From an uncultured Gammaproteobacteria bacterium (GTDB lineage: Bacteria > Pseudomonadota > Gammaproteobacteria > Pseudomonadales > Pseudohongiellaceae), in contig CAXBFG010000002.1 in NCBI GenBank assembly GCA_963975155.1, forward strand, positions 264,181 to 328,180: a stretch of DNA of 64,000 bases. Direction: 5' to 3'. A program made the translations under genes and the position numbers. The notes below the pieces were generated by a model, which did not search any database, was not told where the DNA came from, and was given only the letters and a program-made list of their open reading frames with translations. Below are positions 3,747-27,287 of this stretch, piece by piece (the first letter of the stretch is position 1; each line of letters opens with the position of its first letter).

Positions 3747-5978
3747 TCAGAAACGAAGATTGCGGCTGTATTTCACAACCAGCTCTGAATCAACAGGATT
3801 TAATTCCTTAAAAGCACCGGAGCTGGAATCAAAATTGTAGTTAACAACCAGGTACAGATTCTCACCAGCACGCGGATTCCAGCGTAATCGGCTGTTAATA
3901 CCTGCCGAACCTGAACCATTGTCGTATTGCAGCAGATTTACCCAGGACCATCTGGCATTAAAAGCAAAACTGGCATTCATAGTGATCAGGCGGGTGATGA
4001 AATCTCCTGCAGGTAATGAGGCGTGCGTGAAATTATAGGCAAAGTCGAGTGACAGGTTACGATTCGGATTCCAGCCTACACCAGCATTTACTACACGACT
4101 ATCCCCATCATAGAACTCACCTTCCCGATAGGTAAGATTGGGGGCAATATTACGGTTTCTGCTAGACCTGATCATAAGCTGCGCGTAGTCAAAGGAATAA
4201 TTGCCAGCCGGTATAAAGATACCCGGCTGAATCTGAAAAGGCTGGGTAAGCCCTTCCCTGTCCCTTTGCAGCATGATAAATACCAGATCACCCTGCATGG
4301 TATCAAAAGCCAGGGGGTTAAACTGAATGAAACCACTTTGCAATTCTCCGGTCGCAACATCCCGAATCTCATCGCCTCTCAGTACAAAGGTCAGATTCCG
4401 TATAAATGGATTCGCATCCAGAAAATACCGGTAATTGCTTGAAAAGGCTGCTCGTTCAATGCCTTTACGGTTGGCGAAACCCAGGCTCGGATTGAACTGA
4501 TCACCGATATAGCTGTAATCCAGTTCCAGACTGGCCCCGGTTCCCTGTGTTGAATAATTAACATTGGCGTTATAGGCCTTGTCATCGCCGTCAAGTCCTT
4601 GCGTATCGGTTTGCTGGTACCACAGATCACTGGTCAGCGTATGACTGTTGGAGAACTGGGTATTACGGTAGGTAAAATCAACGCCAGCCAGTGAGTTATC
4701 GGTAAGACTATTGGGATCTCCGTTGGTGAATATGGCGCCTATTCTGGATTCCGAAAGAATATTCGAGGTGATACGACCCACGAACACATCCTGTCCTTCC
4801 AGACCAATACGATCACCCTGTTGTATCGCCAGTGCACCAATACTGAGATTGCCCACGCGTCCGGCCAGTTTTCCACCTACATCGATATCAACCGGCTGTC
4901 CGCTGGCAGGGTTAAGACCGATACGTCTTGAATAAAACGGGATGCCATTGCGAAGCTTGGCGCCTGGTGGTGCCGTACCACCGCTGCTGCTCGAAACACC
5001 GATATTTCCAAAACTGAATATCTCGGAATCCTGCAGGAAAAAATCGCGCTTTTCTGGAAAAAACAGCGAAAAACGCGTCAGGTTTACCTGCCGGTCATCG
5101 ACTTCGGTGGCTGAAAAATCGGTATTCAGCGTCAGTACACCGGTAAGGTTTGGGGTGAATTTGTAGAACACATCCAGCGAAGGGTCCACACGATCTTTAG
5201 TATCACCGGTCACTTGATTCTCTGCCTGGGCAACTGTAATAGAAGGCACAATATCCAGGCCCAGCCCCTGGCGGATCTCATTTATTCCTGCGACCTGACC
5301 TGCTGTGGAAGGATTGGTACTACGATTAAATGAAGACCAGTAAATTCTTTCGTTTTTACGTGCGATTGAACGTCCCAGATTGAGTCCCCATTCGTCTGTA
5401 TTCGGGTCGAAATTAAGTGTGGTGAAAGGAATGATCATTTCCGTCGTCCAGCCCTGCTCATCAATTCTGGACTCAACCTGCCAGATACCGCTCCAGTCAC
5501 CATTAAAGGTGCTGGCACTTTCCCAGACGCCTTCACTGCGTACACCATTGGGATTGGTCTGAAAATAAAAGGCTGTGCGATCGTTGTTAAAGGTATCCAG
5601 AAGAATATCTGCAGTATCATCTCCATTCACGTTCTGGCCCTGAATAAGCTGGTTGGCCCTGATCAGTGAGGGATCCCCATCATAAAGACGTGCCGCCATA
5701 TAAAAGTTATTTTCATCATAGGTGATGTAATATTCGCTCACTTCGGTGGGCTCGCCATGATCAACCGGCTGAACCTGATGAAAGTCAGTGATCACAGTAG
5801 CTTCACGCCAGATAGGATCATCCAGCAGCCCATCAAGAACGGGTCTTAAAGTGGTTTTACGTATTTCGGCCAGCTTGATTTCAGAATTTTGTGGCGTAGC
5901 AGTTGATGAACTGCTCTGCGCCAGCGCAATCATTGGGCAGATAGATAAAATCAGAACGATGAGCCGATACAGCTTCAA
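3747..5978 (-). CDS. Large secreted/outer-membrane protein, CBM9-like N-terminal domain plus DUF5916-like beta-rich region
   Basis: 743 aa with a signal peptide (ALAQ). The N-terminus matches the carbohydrate-binding family 9-like pattern (LDGLLDDPIWREA). The remainder is long, beta-rich and aromatic-rich and ends ...NLRF. Confidence 0.6.
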   Translation of the reverse strand: MKLYRLIVLILSICPMIALAQSSSSTATPQNSEIKLAEIRKTTLRPVLDGLLDDPIWREATVITDFHQVQPVDHGEPTEVSEYYITYDENNFYMAARLYDGDPSLIRANQLIQGQNVNGDDTADILLDTFNNDRTAFYFQTNPNGVRSEGVWESASTFNGDWSGIWQVESRIDEQGWTTEMIIPFTTLNFDPNTDEWGLNLGRSIARKNERIYWSSFNRSTNPSTAGQVAGINEIRQGLGLDIVPSITVAQAENQVTGDTKDRVDPSLDVFYKFTPNLTGVLTLNTDFSATEVDDRQVNLTRFSLFFPEKRDFFLQDSEIFSFGNIGVSSSSGGTAPPGAKLRNGIPFYSRRIGLNPASGQPVDIDVGGKLAGRVGNLSIGALAIQQGDRIGLEGQDVFVGRITSNILSESRIGAIFTNGDPNSLTDNSLAGVDFTYRNTQFSNSHTLTSDLWYQQTDTQGLDGDDKAYNANVNYSTQGTGASLELDYSYIGDQFNPSLGFANRKGIERAAFSSNYRYFLDANPFIRNLTFVLRGDEIRDVATGELQSGFIQFNPLAFDTMQGDLVFIMLQRDREGLTQPFQIQPGIFIPAGNYSFDYAQLMIRSSRNRNIAPNLTYREGEFYDGDSRVVNAGVGWNPNRNLSLDFAYNFTHASLPAGDFITRLITMNASFAFNARWSWVNLLQYDNGSGSAGINSRLRWNPRAGENLYLVVNYNFDSSSGAFKELNPVDSELVVKYSRNLRF

Positions 5979-6305: not shown

Positions 6306-7622
6306 ATGGAATTTAGTTTTCAGTCAATTTCCCAAATGTTATCCACACTGCCGGGCAAGCTTGCTGACTGGTCTTCTCAAACTGATGCCCTGTATCAGAT
6401 TATCATTCTGGTAATCCTCTACGGTCTTGCCCTGATCATTGCAAAAAAAATTGAACCCCGTCTGGAGGTCTATGCCAGAAAAATCAAGGGTTACCCCGGC
6501 CTGTTGCGGGTTGTTATCTCGATTTTACGCCGCTCCAACTGGGTTTGTTTTGTTTTCGAGCTCGCCATTGTGCTGGCCCTCATTACCGGTATGGGATGGC
6601 GTGAGCAAAGTTATCTGATCTATCTTGCCCTGCTTTTATCGTTAGCATGGCTGATCATCTCAGTCGCCACTCAATCCATCAGAAACCGCTCCCTTAGTCA
6701 GCTGGTAGCACTGATGGGCTGGGCATACGTGGCGATTACCATACTTGGCATCACAGAAAATACCACGCTCTTCCTTGACGCTGCAGGTTTCACCATCGGT
6801 GAATTTCGCATCTCACTACTGCTTGTTTTCAAGGTCTTTGTGTTTCTGGGTGTCACCTTCTGGATAGCCATTTCAACAGGCAATTTCCTTGACCGTCGTA
6901 TTCAAAAAAATGACGAACTGACCCCTAGTCTGCGTGTGCTGATCGGCAAGATTTTAAAAATCACCCTGATTTTTATTGCGGTGATGGTAGCCATCTCAGG
7001 AATCGGAATAGACCTTACCGTTTTTTCAGTGCTATCTGGCGCTATCGGTGTCGGCATCGGTTTTGGTTTCCAGAAAGTTATCTCCAATTTTATTTCCGGA
7101 CTGATTATCCTGGCTGACCGCTCTATCAAACCGGGTGACACCATTTCTCTGGGAGATACCTTTGGCTGGATACGTGAACTAAGAGCGCGCTTTGTCTCAG
7201 TAGTGACCAGGGATGGCAGAGAATTTCTGATACCTAACGAGGATTTTATTACCCGTGAAGTTATCAACTGGTCCTTCTCGGATGATATGGTCAGGCTGGA
7301 TGTGCCCTTTGGCGTTTCCTATGACTCAAACCCTCATCAGGTAACTGAATTAGCTATTCTGGCAATCAAGCAGGTTGATCGTGTGATAGAAACACCATCG
7401 CCAGTATGCTGGCTAACAGGCTTCGGCGATTCATCGCTGGATTTTCTTCTACGATTCTGGATCCGGGACCCTCAAAACGGCTTAACCAATATACGTGGCC
7501 AGGCCTTGTTGGCGCTATGGGATACCTTTAAAGAACACGGCATCAAAATTCCTTATCCGCATAGAGAAGTTATTATGAACACGCCTGTTTCCATCACAAC
7601 AAAGGATAAGAACCTGGATTGA
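6306..7622 (+). CDS. Mechanosensitive ion channel (MscS family)
   Basis: 438 aa with multiple N-terminal TM helices. The conserved MscS pore/beta domain reads ISNFISGLIILADRSIKPGDTISLGDTFGWIRELRARFVSVVTRDGREFLIPNEDF. Confidence 0.88.
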   Translation: MEFSFQSISQMLSTLPGKLADWSSQTDALYQIIILVILYGLALIIAKKIEPRLEVYARKIKGYPGLLRVVISILRRSNWVCFVFELAIVLALITGMGWREQSYLIYLALLLSLAWLIISVATQSIRNRSLSQLVALMGWAYVAITILGITENTTLFLDAAGFTIGEFRISLLLVFKVFVFLGVTFWIAISTGNFLDRRIQKNDELTPSLRVLIGKILKITLIFIAVMVAISGIGIDLTVFSVLSGAIGVGIGFGFQKVISNFISGLIILADRSIKPGDTISLGDTFGWIRELRARFVSVVTRDGREFLIPNEDFITREVINWSFSDDMVRLDVPFGVSYDSNPHQVTELAILAIKQVDRVIETPSPVCWLTGFGDSSLDFLLRFWIRDPQNGLTNIRGQALLALWDTFKEHGIKIPYPHREVIMNTPVSITTKDKNLD

Positions 7623-8565: not shown

Positions 8566-8620
8566 GTTTCAGTCTAAACTAACCCTCAATTTTTATTAAT
8601 TCAAGGTATGTCTACACCAA

Positions 8621-8892
8621 ACTGAACGCGAGAGCCTTATCAGCGAGCTGGATAGTCCTCTGTGGCTCGACCCCTAAGCAACTGGACGCGAAAAAAGGAG
8701 TTATTTACCTAAAGAATGGTTTGGTGCCCAGGAGAGGGTGAAGTCTGCCGTTTATGAAGCGCAGCTTCATGGCAGACTGAACGCGAGCGCCTTATCAGCG
8801 AGCTGGATAGTCCTCTGTGGCTCGACCCCTAAGCAACTGGACGCGTAAAAAAGAGTTATTTACCTAAAGAATGGTTTGGTGCCCAGGAGAGG
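8621..8892. repeat. Tandem duplication (period 155 bp) of the tRNA-Leu 3' end plus ~100 nt of downstream flank
   Basis: 8621-8737 and 8776-8892 are near-identical. Each copy ends in TGGTGCCCAGGAGAGG, the reverse complement of the last 16 nt of the tRNA. A 38-nt hairpin-forming spacer lies at 8738-8775. Confidence 0.9.
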
Positions 8893-8963
8893 ACTTGAAC
8901 CTCCACGACCTTTCGATCACTAGCACCTGAAGCTAGCGTGTCTACCAATTCCACCACCTGGGC
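8877..8963 (-). tRNA. tRNA-Leu (anticodon CAG)
   Basis: The reverse complement folds as a cloverleaf. Acceptor stem is GCCCAGG/CCTGGGC. Anticodon arm is CTAGC-TTCAGGT-GCTAG. There is a long variable arm, a T arm GGAGGTTCAAGTCCTCT, and an encoded CCA. Confidence 0.93.
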
Positions 8964-12292: not shown

Positions 12293-12560
12293 AAAGCAGC
12301 TTGTTATCTTGCTCAATTACGGGCTTGTAAACTCCGCCGATAACAAGCTGCTTTGCCTCGATCTTTCTTCGCTCATAACGCGGCCTGAGTTGGAGTTCAG
12401 ACTTACTCTTAGCCTCGTGAGCCCATTGAATTGCTTTCTCCCTTGGCTTAAGTTCGGATTCAAGCGAGGACTGTCTGAGTCGCGAAGCGGCGAGTTCCGC
12501 AGCGCCGAACTTAAGTGAAGGGAAGAATGAAGGGTGAACCGAAGCAAGAGCTGGGCTTCA
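12293..12560 (+). repeat. Copy A of a structured intergenic element family (3' domain conserved, 5' domain reduced)
   Basis: The core CAAGCGAGGACTGTCTGAGTCGCGAAGCGGCGAGTTCCGCAGCGCCG (12461-12507) is shared with 15476-15524 and with 26914-26960 on the other strand. Nested stems include 12447-12457/12505-12515 (11 bp, perfect). Confidence 0.8.
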
Positions 12561-13481: not shown

Positions 13482-14312
13482 ATGCGTGGCTTAGCGGGAT
13501 ATGCAATGCATGGCCGCCGTCAGGCCATCATTGTCGTGTTGCTGACCGGCATCTTTCCACTGGTTTATTGCCTTAGCGCGGCTGTCGTCGGATTAGTTAA
13601 TCTGCGCAAAAATGCTACAGAAGGTTTATTGATTCTGCTGTGGTCTCTGATTCCGGCAGGAATCTACTGGATTCTCGGTGATAGTCAGCCGCTGATCCTG
13701 ATGTTAAGTGTTGCTGTACTGGCCCAGGCCCTCAAATATCTGGAGTCCTGGTCCAAAGTGATCATGCTGGGAACTGTGTTAGGAATACTCGCACAGCTCA
13801 GTCTGGTCTGGCAGGGTGAGTATGTGGCTCAACTGACCTCGATGATGAATGAAGTCATCATTCTGCAGGAAAGTCAGGGAGTCGTGTATGACTACACTGC
13901 CGATGAACTGGTCGGTTTGCTGCTTGGTTTTTACGGCGCTTACCATTTTGCCATCGTCATTTCGTGCCTGGTTCTGGCACGCTGGTGGCAGGCGAGACTG
14001 TATAACCCCGGTGGGTTTAAGCATGAATTTCACCAGTTGCGGCTGGAACCCGGTTTTGCAATATTGCTGACGGGTTTTATTATTGCCGCGCTGGCAGGGG
14101 TGCCGCCCTTGAGTAGTTGGCTGGCAATCCTGTGTATACCTCCTTTATTGGGAGGGCTGGCCCTACTGCATTATATGGTGGCCTATAAAAAGCTCAGCCT
14201 GAGCTGGATTGTGATGGCATGGCTGGCGGCTCTGTTCATATCACCCCTGGTGATTTTATTGGGACTGCTGGACAGCGTAATGAATTTTAGAAAACGAATT
14301 ACCAGTAACTGA
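13482..14312 (+). CDS. Polytopic membrane protein of unknown function (rpsR-rplI intervening gene)
   Basis: 276 aa, about 7 TM helices, with a good SD (GGAGGAAGGG) upstream. The same position is occupied by a hypothetical membrane protein in Pseudomonas-type rpsF operons. Confidence 0.7.
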
Positions 14313-14341: not shown

Positions 14342-14890
14342 ATGAACGTAATACTACTGGAAAAAGTCGGAAAAATTGGCGACGTCGGTGATCAGGTCAA
14401 CGTCAAGGCTGGTTATGCCCGCAATTATTTATTTCCTTTTGCCAAGGCAATTCCGGCGACCAAATCCAATGTTGCTGATTTTGAAACACGCAAAGAAGAA
14501 TTAATGAAAGCTGCCAATGAAAAAATGGCTATCGCACAGGCACGTGCCGACAAACTGTCTGGCCTGGCTATCACCATCGAAGCCAACGCCGGTGAGGAAG
14601 GCAAATTGTTCGGTTCAATCGGAACCCGCGATATTGCCGATGCCCTGATTGCTGCCGGACATGAAATCGAGAAAAGCGAAGTGTTGTTGCCAGAAGGCGC
14701 GCTGCGTAATACCGGAGAATTTGTGGTGAGTCTGTCATTGGGTTCTGAAGTAACTGCCGAAATCACCCTTCTGGTAACTGGCTCTTCTGCTCCGGCTGAA
14801 ACCATTGCCGCCATGGAAGAGATAGAAGGCAAGCAGGATCAGGATTTATCAGAAGCATCTGAAGAATCTGCAGTAAAAGACGAAGAATAA
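14342..14890 (+). CDS. rplI: 50S ribosomal protein L9 with an acidic C-terminal extension
   Basis: [32 protein letters not shown] is the canonical L9 N-terminus. It is 182 aa against the usual ~149, because of a Glu/Asp-rich tail. Confidence 0.95.
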
Positions 14891-14904
14891 CTGAGTCTTT
14901 GCAG

Positions 14905-15206
14905 TACCAAAAAGGGAGCCAAAAGCTCCCTTTTTTTTTGTCTTTTGAATACCAGATAGTGAGATTTAATTATTTTTTTATGTGCTGAAAATACCAGACC
15001 GGGAGCCCTTAGCTCCCCTTTTTTTTTGTCTTTCGAATACCAGATAGTGAGATTTAATTGTTTTTTATGTGCTGAAAATACCAGACCGGGAGCCCTTAGC
15101 TCCCTTTTTTTTTGTCTTTCGAATACCAGATAGTGAGATTTAATTATTTTTTTATGTGCTGACAATACCAGACCGGGAGCCCTTAGCTCCTTTTTTTGTC
15201 TTGAAA
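14905..15206 (+). repeat. 87-bp tandem array (about 3.4 units), each unit ending in a terminator-like hairpin plus T-run
   Basis: Hairpins GGGAGCC(AAA/CTT)AGCTCC(C) start at 14914, 15001, 15088 and 15175, an exact 87-nt period. The inter-hairpin sequence is also repeated. Confidence 0.9.
14914..14939 (+). terminator. Rho-independent terminator of the rpsF-rplI operon (first of four repeated hairpins)
   Basis: GGGAGCCAAAAGCTCCC followed by 9 T, 24 nt after the rplI stop codon. Confidence 0.85.
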
Positions 15207-15634
15207 TTCTCAAAAACGGGTAGTGCATCCGTTTGAAATTTTACTGTTTATTCTCAGTCTTAATGATGAGCTATCCTTTTGACGACACGCCAAAAAGCGT
15301 ACATCCTTGTACAGGCTCGGCTGACGACATCCCTGTCGTCAGACGGTCGCCAACCTGATAGCTCATCATTAAGACTGTGCATTAAACATCCTTTAAAAGT
15401 CGACAATGCTAGGAAAGCCGCCCTTCCTGCCATGTGAACCCATTGAGATGTAGTTTTCCTGAGTGTTTTTCCGATCAAGCGCGAGGACTGTCTGAGTCGC
15501 AAAGCGACGAGTTCCGCAGCGCCGGAAAAACAGGAAGGAAAGATCGAAGGGTGAACATGGCAGAAGCGGCGGCTTCTACAACGTCAGCCTTTTCAAACTG
15601 ACGCACTACCCAAAAACGGGAACCACTAGTCGTA
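15207..15634 (+). repeat. Copy B (full length) of the structured intergenic element family; candidate ncRNA or non-autonomous mobile element
   Basis: Perfect 21-bp stem 15255-15275/15357-15377. Conserved core at 15476-15524. 21-nt inverted repeats at 15218-15238/15591-15611. Flanking 15-nt direct duplication at 15192-15206/15635-15649. Confidence 0.8.
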
Positions 15635-15699
15635 TTTTTTATCTTGAAAATACCTAAACAGTGAGCTTTCCACACTCGCTTATAAACTAAAACTAACTT

Positions 15700-16989
15700 T
15701 TACTTGCCGCCAAACAGGCTTTTCACGACTTCCGGATCCCGACCTTTTGTATAAATCAGGCTGGAATCAAAATTAGTCTTATCAAAGCCAAATACTTCAA
15801 ACAAGGCTTCGAAACTATTGGCGTCTGAGGCTGATAAATTCGGACTTGCCTGAATCTCTGCCAGCATTTCTTCACTGTCAATCAGCTGTGAGATATTGAT
15901 CAGGCTTTCATCCCGCATACCGGCAATCATGGTTATCTGATGGCCGTTTGGCGAAGGGAAGGTGGCCAGCATGCTGAAGTCCTGATAGGAATCGGCACCG
16001 GAAAGTCCTGAATTACTAACATAATAATCGCCAGTCTCCAGATTGATCAGTTCATCGTAGGTATTGCCAATCTGCAGGGCGGAATCCACGAACATCAGAC
16101 TGTATAAATTATTCAAACCGCTTAATAAACCCAGGTAAATAACATGGTTATTGGCCAAATCAGCAGTCGTGTAGTCAGAAACCATCTTGATATTTATCCG
16201 ATCGGCATTTACGCCATGCAGCAACACTTCCATCACCTGTGCCAGTGCATAAGCAGTGGAACTCGGGATGTAATTCAGGCCGATATCAAAATACTGAGCA
16301 GTCCCTTCGAGTCCCATGTCCTGCAGAAAGTCGAGTTCCTCGGCGGAATTCACATCGAATTCCCGCACCAGTTTGGCGACGTCTCCATTGGCATTTACCT
16401 CGCCGAAGATGTAATAGTCGCCAATCAGAATCAGTATGGGAGCTTCATCATCAAAGATCATATCCCAGGGACTGAAGGCCGCCAGCGGATATGCCCTTGC
16501 ATCCTCTGCTGCATTTTCTTCATTGTTTGAACCAAGCTGAATAAGCAAGTTGACCAGCAATAGTAAAATGGCAAGGCTAGCCAGCACTTGAGTCCTGGCC
16601 TGCCGTTTCAGGGTCTTGCCGGTCACACTTAGCGTAGGCTCGGCTGGCTGGGGAATATCTTCACTGAGTACGGCAGTCAGCAGATACTGCCCTTTGGGGA
16701 TGTCCAGGCGATATTTTTCCTGTTTCCCATACTTATCAAAGTAGGTTTTTAGTTTATTTCGCAGATGATAAATATGCACCCGCACGATGGAGTCCTTGCC
16801 AACATCAAATTCCGCATCACGGCCCAGCACATCAATCGCAATCGCCATTTCCTTGGGATTGTGTCCGCTCAGGGCGCATTCGGCCAGATAGTTCAGAATG
16901 TCACTATAAGTTTGTGAGCGACCCAGAACACCACTGTTGATAATGCGCTGAACCAGTGCCTGAAGTTCCTCGGGCTGAATATTATTCAT
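15700..16989 (-). CDS. Membrane-anchored winged-helix (ToxR/CadC-like) transcriptional regulator with periplasmic domain
   Basis: 429 aa. The N-terminal ~100 aa resemble an OmpR/CadC-type DNA-binding domain (...SIVRVHIYHLRNKLKTYF...YRLDIPKGQY). A single TM (VLASLAILLLLVNLLI) precedes a ~270-aa C-terminal domain. Confidence 0.6.
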   Translation of the reverse strand: MNNIQPEELQALVQRIINSGVLGRSQTYSDILNYLAECALSGHNPKEMAIAIDVLGRDAEFDVGKDSIVRVHIYHLRNKLKTYFDKYGKQEKYRLDIPKGQYLLTAVLSEDIPQPAEPTLSVTGKTLKRQARTQVLASLAILLLLVNLLIQLGSNNEENAAEDARAYPLAAFSPWDMIFDDEAPILILIGDYYIFGEVNANGDVAKLVREFDVNSAEELDFLQDMGLEGTAQYFDIGLNYIPSSTAYALAQVMEVLLHGVNADRINIKMVSDYTTADLANNHVIYLGLLSGLNNLYSLMFVDSALQIGNTYDELINLETGDYYVSNSGLSGADSYQDFSMLATFPSPNGHQITMIAGMRDESLINISQLIDSEEMLAEIQASPNLSASDANSFEALFEVFGFDKTNFDSSLIYTKGRDPEVVKSLFGGK

Positions 16990-26824: not shown

Positions 26825-26847
26825 AGAGCCTAGCCAAAAATTATTCC

Positions 26848-27208
26848 AAACTTAACTCTAGATCCGCCACACTCTTGCCCTTGCTCACCCTTCAATCTTC
26901 CCTTTGCTTTAGTCGGCGCTGCGGAACTCGTCGCTTTGCGACTCAGACAGTCCTCGCTTGATCCCGACGAAAGCAAAGTGAAAAAACATTTCAATGGGTT
27001 CACAAGGGTAAGAGTTGTGCCGTCTCAACAATTCATGTGATATCTGTAAAGTTTATGGCACAGACTATGCGCTCTTAGTCTTTGCGTGACCGTCTGGCGA
27101 CAGGACGTCGCCAGCCGAGCCTGCACAAGGACGTGCGTTTTTTGGCGTGTCACAAAAAGACTAAGAGCGCATAGTCTGAATGCAATCGAAAGATTTTTAG
27201 ACTAAGTT
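26848..27208 (-). repeat. Copy C (full length, opposite strand) of the structured intergenic element family; candidate ncRNA
   Basis: Its reverse complement aligns with copy B. Domain 1 stem is 27061-27083/27156-27178 (23 bp, perfect). Core is 26914-26960. Outer stem is 26848-26862/27196-27208. The stems differ in sequence from B but remain complementary. Confidence 0.8.
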
Positions 27209-27287
27209 ATGACTGTTAATAAATATTGCATTTCTTCGGCAGAATGCTATTGTGCGCCACCTTTTTTACGAGACGAGCATTTAAAGA

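Follow-up and report, generated by a model that had tools for sequence, protein, structure and literature searches.

A probable MITE-like element with two structured modules on opposite strands downstream of rplI in a marine gammaproteobacterium

What kind of sequence fills the interval between rplI and the gene convergent on it in an uncultured gammaproteobacterium of the Pseudohongiellaceae, and how it came to lie there, are the questions raised by a 64,000-nt stretch of contig CAXBFG010000002.1 (assembly GCA_963975155.1), which was analysed as a whole and is called the window in the following. An earlier note, made from the sequence alone, had described positions 15207-15634 as copy B of a single two-domain structured element of unfamiliar class, 428 nt long and inserted with a 15-nt target duplication into an array of terminators. 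Comparison with stretches from relatives, other genomes and Tara ocean scaffolds (loci labelled L116, L117 etc.) leads to a different description. With a probability of roughly 0.6, copy B is a 394-nt non-coding mobile element (15218-15611) of the kind of miniature inverted-repeat transposable elements (MITEs), and belongs to a marine gammaproteobacterial family with two modules on opposite strands, a putative CsrA-type decoy RNA (D1) and a new partner (D2).

Copy B is a true insertion. The spacer between rplI and the convergent gene amounts to 809 nt in the window versus 98-132 nt in L117, L118 and L121 (RplI identity 78-85%), where one array unit or none follows rplI and no element is present. 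Empty sites, for which the earlier note had proposed to look, were thus found in relatives, most directly in the closest one, L116, which possesses an uninterrupted homologue of the two flanks of copy B with a single homologous copy of CAAAAACGGG: the flanks of B, when joined (...TTGTCTTGAAATTCTCAAAAACGGGAACCACTAGTCGTATTTTTTATCTTGAAA...), align unbroken with ...TTGTGCTGAAAGTACCGAAAAAGGGGGCCCCTACCCGTATTTTTTATCCTGAAA... of L116. In the window the outer limits of the terminal repeats are 15218 and 15611, and they are directly adjoined by two copies of CAAAAACGGG, 100% identical and 400 nt apart according to the repeat search. The boundaries of copy B are formed by GGGTAGTG...AGTTTGAAA inverted repeats, each end of about 21 nt having the form GGGTAGTG-N4-AGTTTGAAA. 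Copy B hence has the terminal inverted repeats expected of a MITE, together with a duplicated target and a site that is empty in relatives. In L128, which has a near-identical D1, the sequence beyond the 3' end differs from that of B. Because terminal inverted repeats are combined with a duplication of 6-10 bp, the element was probably moved by a DDE-type transposase acting in trans.

The 21-nt inverted repeat seen by the earlier note was confirmed, as was the presence of its two 15-mers (Table 1), after the second of which the array unit resumes. Nevertheless, the 15-mers are array periodicity and not a target duplication, because the same T-tail motif borders the unbroken unit of L116 left and right; CAAAAACGGG is, moreover, closer to the terminal repeats. 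The idea of an insertion into the rplI terminator array therefore held, given the empty site and the short spacers of relatives, whereas the proposed ends had to be replaced by 15218 and 15611. The array was detected by Tandem Repeats Finder (14924-15197, period 87, 95% matches) and seen as direct repeats and as four terminator-like sites as well. It is a lineage-specific tandem amplification of an ancestral bidirectional terminator region, because a single unit exists in L117 and none in L118 and L121. The single unit of L117 lies at 2356-2510; L116 carries different short T-tail units at 4500-4659, where its contig breaks.

The first module, D1, belongs to the TwoAYGGAY class and is read on the minus strand. 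D1 of copy B aligns on this strand with the full length of Rfam model RF01731 (41.8 bits, E = 2.3e-5), and D1 of the sibling element L133 attains 43.7 bits, above the gathering cut-off of 43 bits, while for copy C RF01731 was not reported at E <= 5. The earlier statement that no RNA family matches must accordingly be withdrawn for domain 1; it stands for D2, for which the same check against Rfam gave no match. The perfect stem of domain 1 and the nested helices of domain 2 are present as the earlier note had seen them. Both hairpins of D1 are closed by a common basal stem, perfect over 21 bp in B and 23-30 bp long in siblings, and the minus strand folded as RNA reaches -71.8 kcal/mol (z = -10.1 versus shuffled sequences). 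Over seven copies the sequence of the basal stem has turned over completely with pairing nearly perfect, 20 of 46 pairs being compensatory, and even B and L128, about 95% identical in D1 by eye, are separated by two compensatory double changes. Pairs of the G.U type in the inner stem on the minus strand would be A.C mismatches on the plus strand. The loops of copy B, AGGGAU and AAGGAU, both carry a purine at position 2; the canonical AUGGAU is found in loop 1 of the siblings L127 and L133 and in loop 2 of L137. Loops of the form ACARGGAUGU, at two sites about 25 nt apart, match the CsrA SELEX consensus, RUACARGGAUGU, and their spacing is within reach of a CsrA dimer. As a separate observation, loop 1 is broken at the same point, between ACAGG and AGA, in three D1 copies (L125 ~7340-7420, L126 ~2470-2545, L137:1965-2025) by about 50 nt, which hold a small hairpin and an opposite-strand AYGGAY-type hairpin, e.g. 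CCTCC-ATGGAT-GGAGG; either a nested insertion is present or the copies form a subfamily with three hairpins.

The second module, D2, is characterised by a tip of about 50 nt, CGAGGAC-UGUCU-GA-[GNA-capped stem]-GA-GUUCCGCAG. In copy B its minimum free energy is -80.2 kcal/mol (z = -8.4 versus shuffled sequences), and it matches the covariance model R1 with 66.3 bits (E = 1.4e-16). Rfam returned no match for D2 of copy B at E <= 10, for 18 diverse loci at the gathering threshold or for eight gammaproteobacterial loci at E <= 1. A pattern search anchored on the two constant halves, in a collection with one genome per species, found at least 114 matching stretches, most of them in divergent doublets, in genomes whose labels name about a dozen phyla. 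Among the matches listed are Rhodocyclaceae and other Betaproteobacteria, Gamma- and Alphaproteobacteria, Coriobacteriia, Lachnospiraceae and other Bacillota, Akkermansia, Prevotellaceae, Spirochaetes, Phycisphaeraceae, Longimicrobiales, Thermodesulfobacteriota, Saccharimonadales and Paceibacterota. Calculated from 78 distinct sequences, 90.3% of the cells are standard pairs (71.2% when shuffled), 174 cells are changed on both sides (63 when shuffled), and a covariation score of 0.392 compares with 0.095 for shuffled and 0.03-0.06 for slid registers; strong covariation is displayed by the positions which the pattern leaves free. Structure-preserving substitutions, whose absence the earlier note had named as the mark of a plain decaying repeat, are hence documented for both modules.

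D2 has a sense strand of its own. Folding of the GGACUGUCUGAG strand is favoured over that of the complementary strand by a mean of 6.4 kcal/mol, and is the better one in 84% of 114 copies (p = 1e-15), and G.A pairs and GNA loops occur on this strand only. In 70 distinct apex hairpins 334 Watson-Crick, 36 G.A, 4 G.U and 1 A.C pairs were counted, and 43 of the 70 are capped by GAA, GCA or GUA. D2 copies within 1 kb of each other form divergent pairs in 37 of 41 cases (3 convergent, 1 tandem), and in a Rhodocyclaceae genome such doublets are situated inside repeated units of about 1 kb. No recurrent protein gene accompanies D2: clustering of 1144 open reading frames (ORFs) within 2.5 kb gave generic families such as ABC ATPases and spurious repeat ORFs, and the doublets of L023 and L046 have housekeeping genes and not transposases as neighbours. 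A cis-regulatory role of D2 was rejected on account of an orientation unbiased relative to flanking genes. Hairpins with GGA loops were not enriched near D2 outside the present lineage, and a general co-occurrence of D1 and D2 was rejected. In Betaproteobacteria a tail following D2 (e.g. L017:2040-2110; ...CTTTGGCTACTTTCTTTTGGCGAAGCAAAAGAAAGT...) matches six sites on an Ilyobacter polytropus replicon and records of Pasteurella multocida at 88-90% identity, with NC_014633.1 and NZ_CP020346.1 as the plasmid records concerned; this tail may be another widely shared module.

How the two modules are combined is revealed by sibling elements, which a metagenome scan with the D1 core detected in Tara ocean scaffolds. 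The repeat GTAGTG-N4-AGTTTGAAA is located at fixed offsets from D1 in the siblings L124, L125, L127 and L133. A long form, with D2 (antisense) followed by D1 between two terminal inverted repeats, is represented by copy B, L124/L131, L125/L134 and L127/L130, and a short form, with D1 between the terminal repeats, by L133 and L123. D1 occurs without D2 in L133, L123, L126 and L137, and D2 without D1 in L060 and every other lineage examined. D1 and D2 are therefore separable cargo of one repeat family. In copy B the sense strand is plus for D2 and minus for D1, because of the fold asymmetry, the G.A and GNA features and the strand of the RF01731 match, and the 5' ends of the modules are 28 nt apart (28-50 nt across elements). 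This decides on the description given by the earlier note, one 428-nt two-domain RNA of an unfamiliar class whose insertion among the rplI terminators had duplicated 15 nt of target. It has in its favour that the 15-mers are real, that the array unit resumes after the second of them and that the whole interval is absent from relatives. However, D1 with its sense on the minus strand and D2 with its sense on the plus strand are not one RNA, the modules also occur apart, D1 belongs to RF01731, the proposed ends enclose the conserved terminal repeats and a closer 10-nt duplication, and the 15-mer motif flanks the unbroken L116 unit. We consider it very improbable.

The window contains two further copies. 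The cores GAGGACTGTCTGAGTCGC and CGAGTTCCGCAGCGCCG occur exactly three times each in the window, at 12466 (+), 15483 (+) and 26938 (-), where 0.01 and 0.07 occurrences are expected by chance, and covariance model R1 with filters off gives exactly the same three matches (62-66 bits), in agreement with the three copies of the earlier note. Both further copies were located where it had placed them, yet domain 1 of copy A is not intact. At the D1 position of copy A there is a 16-bp perfect hairpin (12293-12308/12339-12354), sense on the minus strand, in the loop of which a single GGA hairpin is left as a decayed remnant only. Copy C shows the divergent layout of B in mirror image, with radA on one side and a gene for glutathionylspermidine synthase on the other. 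At the site of copy A, the D2 orthologue in L116 is mutated in otherwise invariant core positions, contains 115 nt extra and scores 38.6 bits, so that copy A is decaying in L116, and the element is absent from L121. At site C, the orthologous stretch of L137 (L137:1833-2205 versus window 26825-27287) has D1 and lacks D2 at a RadA identity of 96%; D2 was therefore gained or lost there independently of D1, at an identical relative position. An empty-site comparison for site C is only partly informative, L138 and L139 differing in gene order. In L117:20-60, on a contig that begins inside the element, a solo right-end repeat, TTTCAAAAAGAAGCACTACCC, immediately precedes the conserved leader of rpsF at site A. 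Because of this solo repeat, the sequence suggests that copy A formerly had terminal repeats. A weaker D2-like match of 37.9 bits was also noticed between a DnaT-like gene and queG in Haliea sp. AH-315-K21 (L139:5053-5106, minus strand).

The ends and hairpins described so far would also be expected in part if the element were of the type of repetitive extragenic palindromic (REP) sequences or of the hairpin-forming REP doublets named REPINs, moved as single-stranded DNA by a REP-associated tyrosine transposase (RAYT, an HUH Y1 transposase), with hairpins as DNA recognition structures and the divergent doublet as an inverted REP pair. The terminal repeats begin with GTAG, a hallmark of REP sequences reportedly described by Nunvar in 2010 and by Bertels and Rainey in 2011. 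The doublets are overwhelmingly inverted pairs, D2 has C-GNA-G triloops and tandem G.A pairs typical of stable DNA hairpins, and the near-perfect D1 stems despite their turnover, with the double changes between B and L128, would suit templated repair from arm to arm. Furthermore, a preprint of September 2026 (10.64898/2026.09.22.753630) ties TwoAYGGAY to REP arrays in Pseudomonas fluorescens SBW25. Against this, the distance of about 350 nt between terminal repeats is far above that of REPINs, and no RAYT gene was seen near any copy, a genome-wide RAYT search not having been made. D1 and D2 are, in addition, asymmetric towards opposite strands, whereas both ends are read on one strand in HUH systems, and copy B has a flanking duplication of 6-10 bp, which movement by RAYT is, to our knowledge, not known to produce. 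On balance such an origin seems unlikely.

Conservation of the modules raises another alternative, namely that they are host genes: a divergent pair of small RNAs, with D1 as a CsrA/Rsm sponge and D2 as a second protein-binding RNA, spread by duplication and kept by selection. Strongly conserved, covarying cores, in the case of D2 across phyla, agree with this view, as do the fixed divergent layout with 5' ends 28-50 nt apart, the D1 loops that fit the CsrA consensus, and an orientation of D2 independent of neighbouring genes, which is expected for a trans-acting RNA. However, neither the modules nor the sequence between them yielded a promoter-like site, two promoters would not fit into so short and variable a spacer, and inspection by eye revealed no consistent -35/-10 elements in the spacers of sibling elements. 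The inverted repeats at the ends, the duplication that flanks them and the empty sites also speak for a mobile element, copies decay (D1 of copy A is degraded, the L116 core is mutated, D2 is absent in L137), and copy content differs between close relatives. Host genes are thus a rather doubtful explanation.

Under the preferred reading of a MITE-like mobile element, copy B would have inserted itself into a unit of T-rich terminator tail behind rplI, mobilised in trans by a transposase, probably of the DDE type. Read-through transcription from one flank or the other may let its modules work as RNA, each of them being sense for transcripts that arrive from the far side. D1, by means of its long hypervariable basal stem, would present two hairpins resembling high-affinity CsrA/RsmA sites and could titrate a CsrA-family dimer as a decoy, and D2 may bind some widely conserved factor or stabilise or terminate the transcript.

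Several observations weigh against this reading. Identity to the homologue of the empty site in L116 is only about 75%, and 60 nt beyond it the L116 contig stops; the flanking target duplication is clear for B only, the flanks of L133, L124 and L127 being ambiguous; and the repeat search found terminal repeats absent from copies A and C. Neither a transposase nor an autonomous element with these ends was detected in the loci compared, a dedicated genome search not having been made. D1 of copy B scores 1.2 bits below the cut-off and has loops ARGGAU, not AYGGAY, and no sigma-70-like promoter was found in 14800-15800. The invariant core of D2 is partly imposed by the search pattern, and the phylum assignments of D2 loci are the titles of metagenome-assembled genome records. 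An RNA function of the modules is suggested by strand-specific non-Watson-Crick pairs, which single-stranded DNA could form too, C-GNA-G triloops being classic DNA mini-hairpins.

A wider interpretation is possible as well, although we hold it tentatively and at odds well below even: D2 may be an undescribed cross-phylum structured nucleic-acid module, TwoAYGGAY and D2 may be interchangeable arms of one divergent-doublet mobile super-family, and their folds may serve as handles for mobilising or host machinery, such as an RNA- or single-stranded-DNA-binding protein shared by many phyla. If this were true, the pairing of D2 with TwoAYGGAY in the present lineage would link these groups for the first time, and if D1 and D2 share a mobilising or binding partner, finding it would explain a large class of unannotated, highly structured bacterial DNA between genes.

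The features of copy B and the positions of copies A and C are compiled in Table 1.

Table 1. Coordinates in the window of copy B, its flanks and modules, and of the two other copies.
Feature	Position	Strand	Remarks
87-bp tandem array	14924..15197	+	Context outside the element; 3.2 copies of rplI-distal terminator units (GGGAGCCCTTAGCTCCC hairpin and T-run)
Left 15-mer TTTTTTGTCTTGAAA	15192..15206	+	T-tail of array unit; not a target duplication
Left direct repeat CAAAAACGGG	15211..15220	+	Likely target-site duplication, 6-10 bp; overlaps first GGG of left terminal repeat
Left terminal inverted repeat GGGTAGTGCATCCGTTTGAAA	15218..15238	+	19/21 complementary (90%) to 15591-15611
Module D1, TwoAYGGAY class	15248..15384	-	Perfect 21-bp basal stem 15255-15275/15357-15377 enclosing 81 nt
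D1 GGA-loop hairpin ACAGGGAUGU	15321-15342	-	Coordinates of the plus strand
D1 GGA-loop hairpin ACAAGGAUGU	15299-15312	-	Coordinates of the plus strand
28-nt spacer	15385..15412		Separates 5' ends of divergent D1 and D2
Module D2	15413..15576	+	164-nt imperfect hairpin, nested helices
D2 apical module	15474-15527	+	Base stem, CGAGGAC, UGUCU bulge, tandem G.A, GUCGC-AAA-GCGAC hairpin, GA, GUUCCGCAG
Right terminal inverted repeat	15591..15611	-	Minus-strand reading GGGTAGTGCGTCAGTTTGAAA
Right direct repeat CAAAAACGGG	15611..15620	+	Second copy of the duplication; L116 empty-site comparison
Right 15-mer TTTTTTATCTTGAAA	15635..15649	+	Periodic T-tail motif of local repeat units
Copy A	12293..12560	+	Decayed D1 position and intact D2 (model match 12457-12510, +); between rlmB and rpsF
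Copy C	26848..27208	-	D2 minus (model match 26911-26964), D1 plus (27061-27178)

A protein-coding nature of the element was rejected. Reading frames open across the core differ between copies A, B and C and, as the earlier note had stated, no ORF is common to them; translations of betaproteobacterial elements were spurious and had no Pfam match. An origin from plasmids or phages was likewise rejected, since a blastn comparison of copy B with plasmids gave no match and the D2 pattern matched only twice in 2.9 million viral contigs. A literature search with sequence words retrieved unrelated primers only, and resemblances noticed by eye to hammerhead, sarcin-ricin loop, 5S rRNA, tRNA-Asp anticodon loop and ERIC were dropped as unsupported.

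The genes around the copies are arranged in the order rnr, rlmB, copy A, rpsF, rpsR, a gene for a 276-aa protein, rplI, the array with copy B, and the convergent gene for a 429-aa protein, followed by dnaB, alr, radA, copy C and the glutathionylspermidine synthase gene. The closest named relative is Haliea sp. AH-315-K21 (RplI 78%, RadA 90% identity), by which the host was taken for a marine member of the Cellvibrionales, of Halieaceae type. The 276-aa protein of the rpsR/rplI interval (13482-14312) and the 429-aa protein convergent on rplI (15700-16989) are both syntenic in all relatives and have no Pfam match. The copies in the window lie beside translation-related genes, as do the siblings L127 and L123, which adjoin a t44/rpsB leader RNA (L127:231-330) and a cluster of three tRNA genes (L123:273-570). 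Elsewhere in the window, at 8618-8892, a pair of 120-nt direct repeats, 97% identical and 155 nt apart, ends within or beside tRNA-Leu(CAG) (8877-8963, minus strand) and may be a duplicated tRNA flank.

Among known systems, MITEs such as Correia/NEMIS, ERIC, RUP and BOX are similar to copy B in being non-coding, a few hundred bases long, bounded by terminal repeats with a short target duplication, intergenic and often located at the 3' ends of genes, and variably present between relatives. RNA hairpins of MITEs are co-transcribed and can be substrates of RNase III. In contrast to them, the interior of B is not a simple palindrome but contains two independently conserved opposite-strand modules, D2 being shared across phyla, and the basal stems of D1 turn over fully and yet stay paired. 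REPINs share the GTAG-headed ends, inverted doublets, extragenic hairpins and variable copy number, and differ in the flanking duplication, the larger size and the opposite-strand modules of copy B, near copies of which no RAYT gene was seen. In its predicted fold D2 recalls a kink-turn, with a helix (GGAC/GUUC), an asymmetric bulge on one strand, tandem sheared G.A/A.G pairs and a second helix, but its bulge has 5 nt (UGUCU) instead of the 3 nt of kink-turns. We know of no L7Ae-family kink-turn partner in Proteobacteria. With CsrB/RsmZ, D1 has GGA motifs in hairpin loops in common, its sites being about 25 nt apart; however, it offers two sites per copy where known sponges have several to about 20, no GacA-type promoter or terminator of its own was found for it, and it is embedded in a mobile repeat.

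The closest likeness is that to the TwoAYGGAY RNA motif (RF01731; Weinberg et al., 2010, PMC2864571), which according to the preprint (10.64898/2026.09.22.753630) is multi-copy, flanked by repeats, enriched in divergent doublets and "mobile-element-like" in Pseudomonadota, with a proposed link to Csr/Rsm. D1 agrees with it in the two adjacent xGGAy-loop hairpins on a common long basal stem, the full-length model match, the gammaproteobacterial host, many intergenic copies, divergent pairing, tandem repeats by the 3' side, and the suspected mobile-like spread and Csr/Rsm link. It differs in that the divergent partner of B's D1 is D2 and not a second TwoAYGGAY, and in the loops with R instead of Y at position 2 and the score slightly under the cut-off. 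The extended form reported in the same preprint comprises three extra hairpins, a same-strand 3' pseudoknot, 5' GMTBT repeats, long 3' repeats and divergent doublets; in contrast, GMTBT pentamers are not enriched here (about 3 per 250 nt by eye versus a null of 2.84 per 200 nt). The 87-bp array is 3' of D1 but outside the duplication of B, and in L117 it is present in the absence of the element. The present locus shows terminal repeats, duplication of the target and an empty site, none of which a term search detected in the preprint's main text.

The family of D1 and its mobile-like behaviour are hence already known. Compared with Rfam and the main text of the preprint, what is new is the set of terminal inverted repeats, duplication and empty site, the short and long forms, and D2 with its cross-phylum spread and doublet habit. 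TwoAYGGAY has been an orphan since 2010, and because the locus supplies terminal repeats, a duplication, an empty site and short and long forms, its mobility becomes directly testable, while D2 adds a covarying cross-phylum module without an Rfam family which shows the same habit of divergent doublets (37/41).

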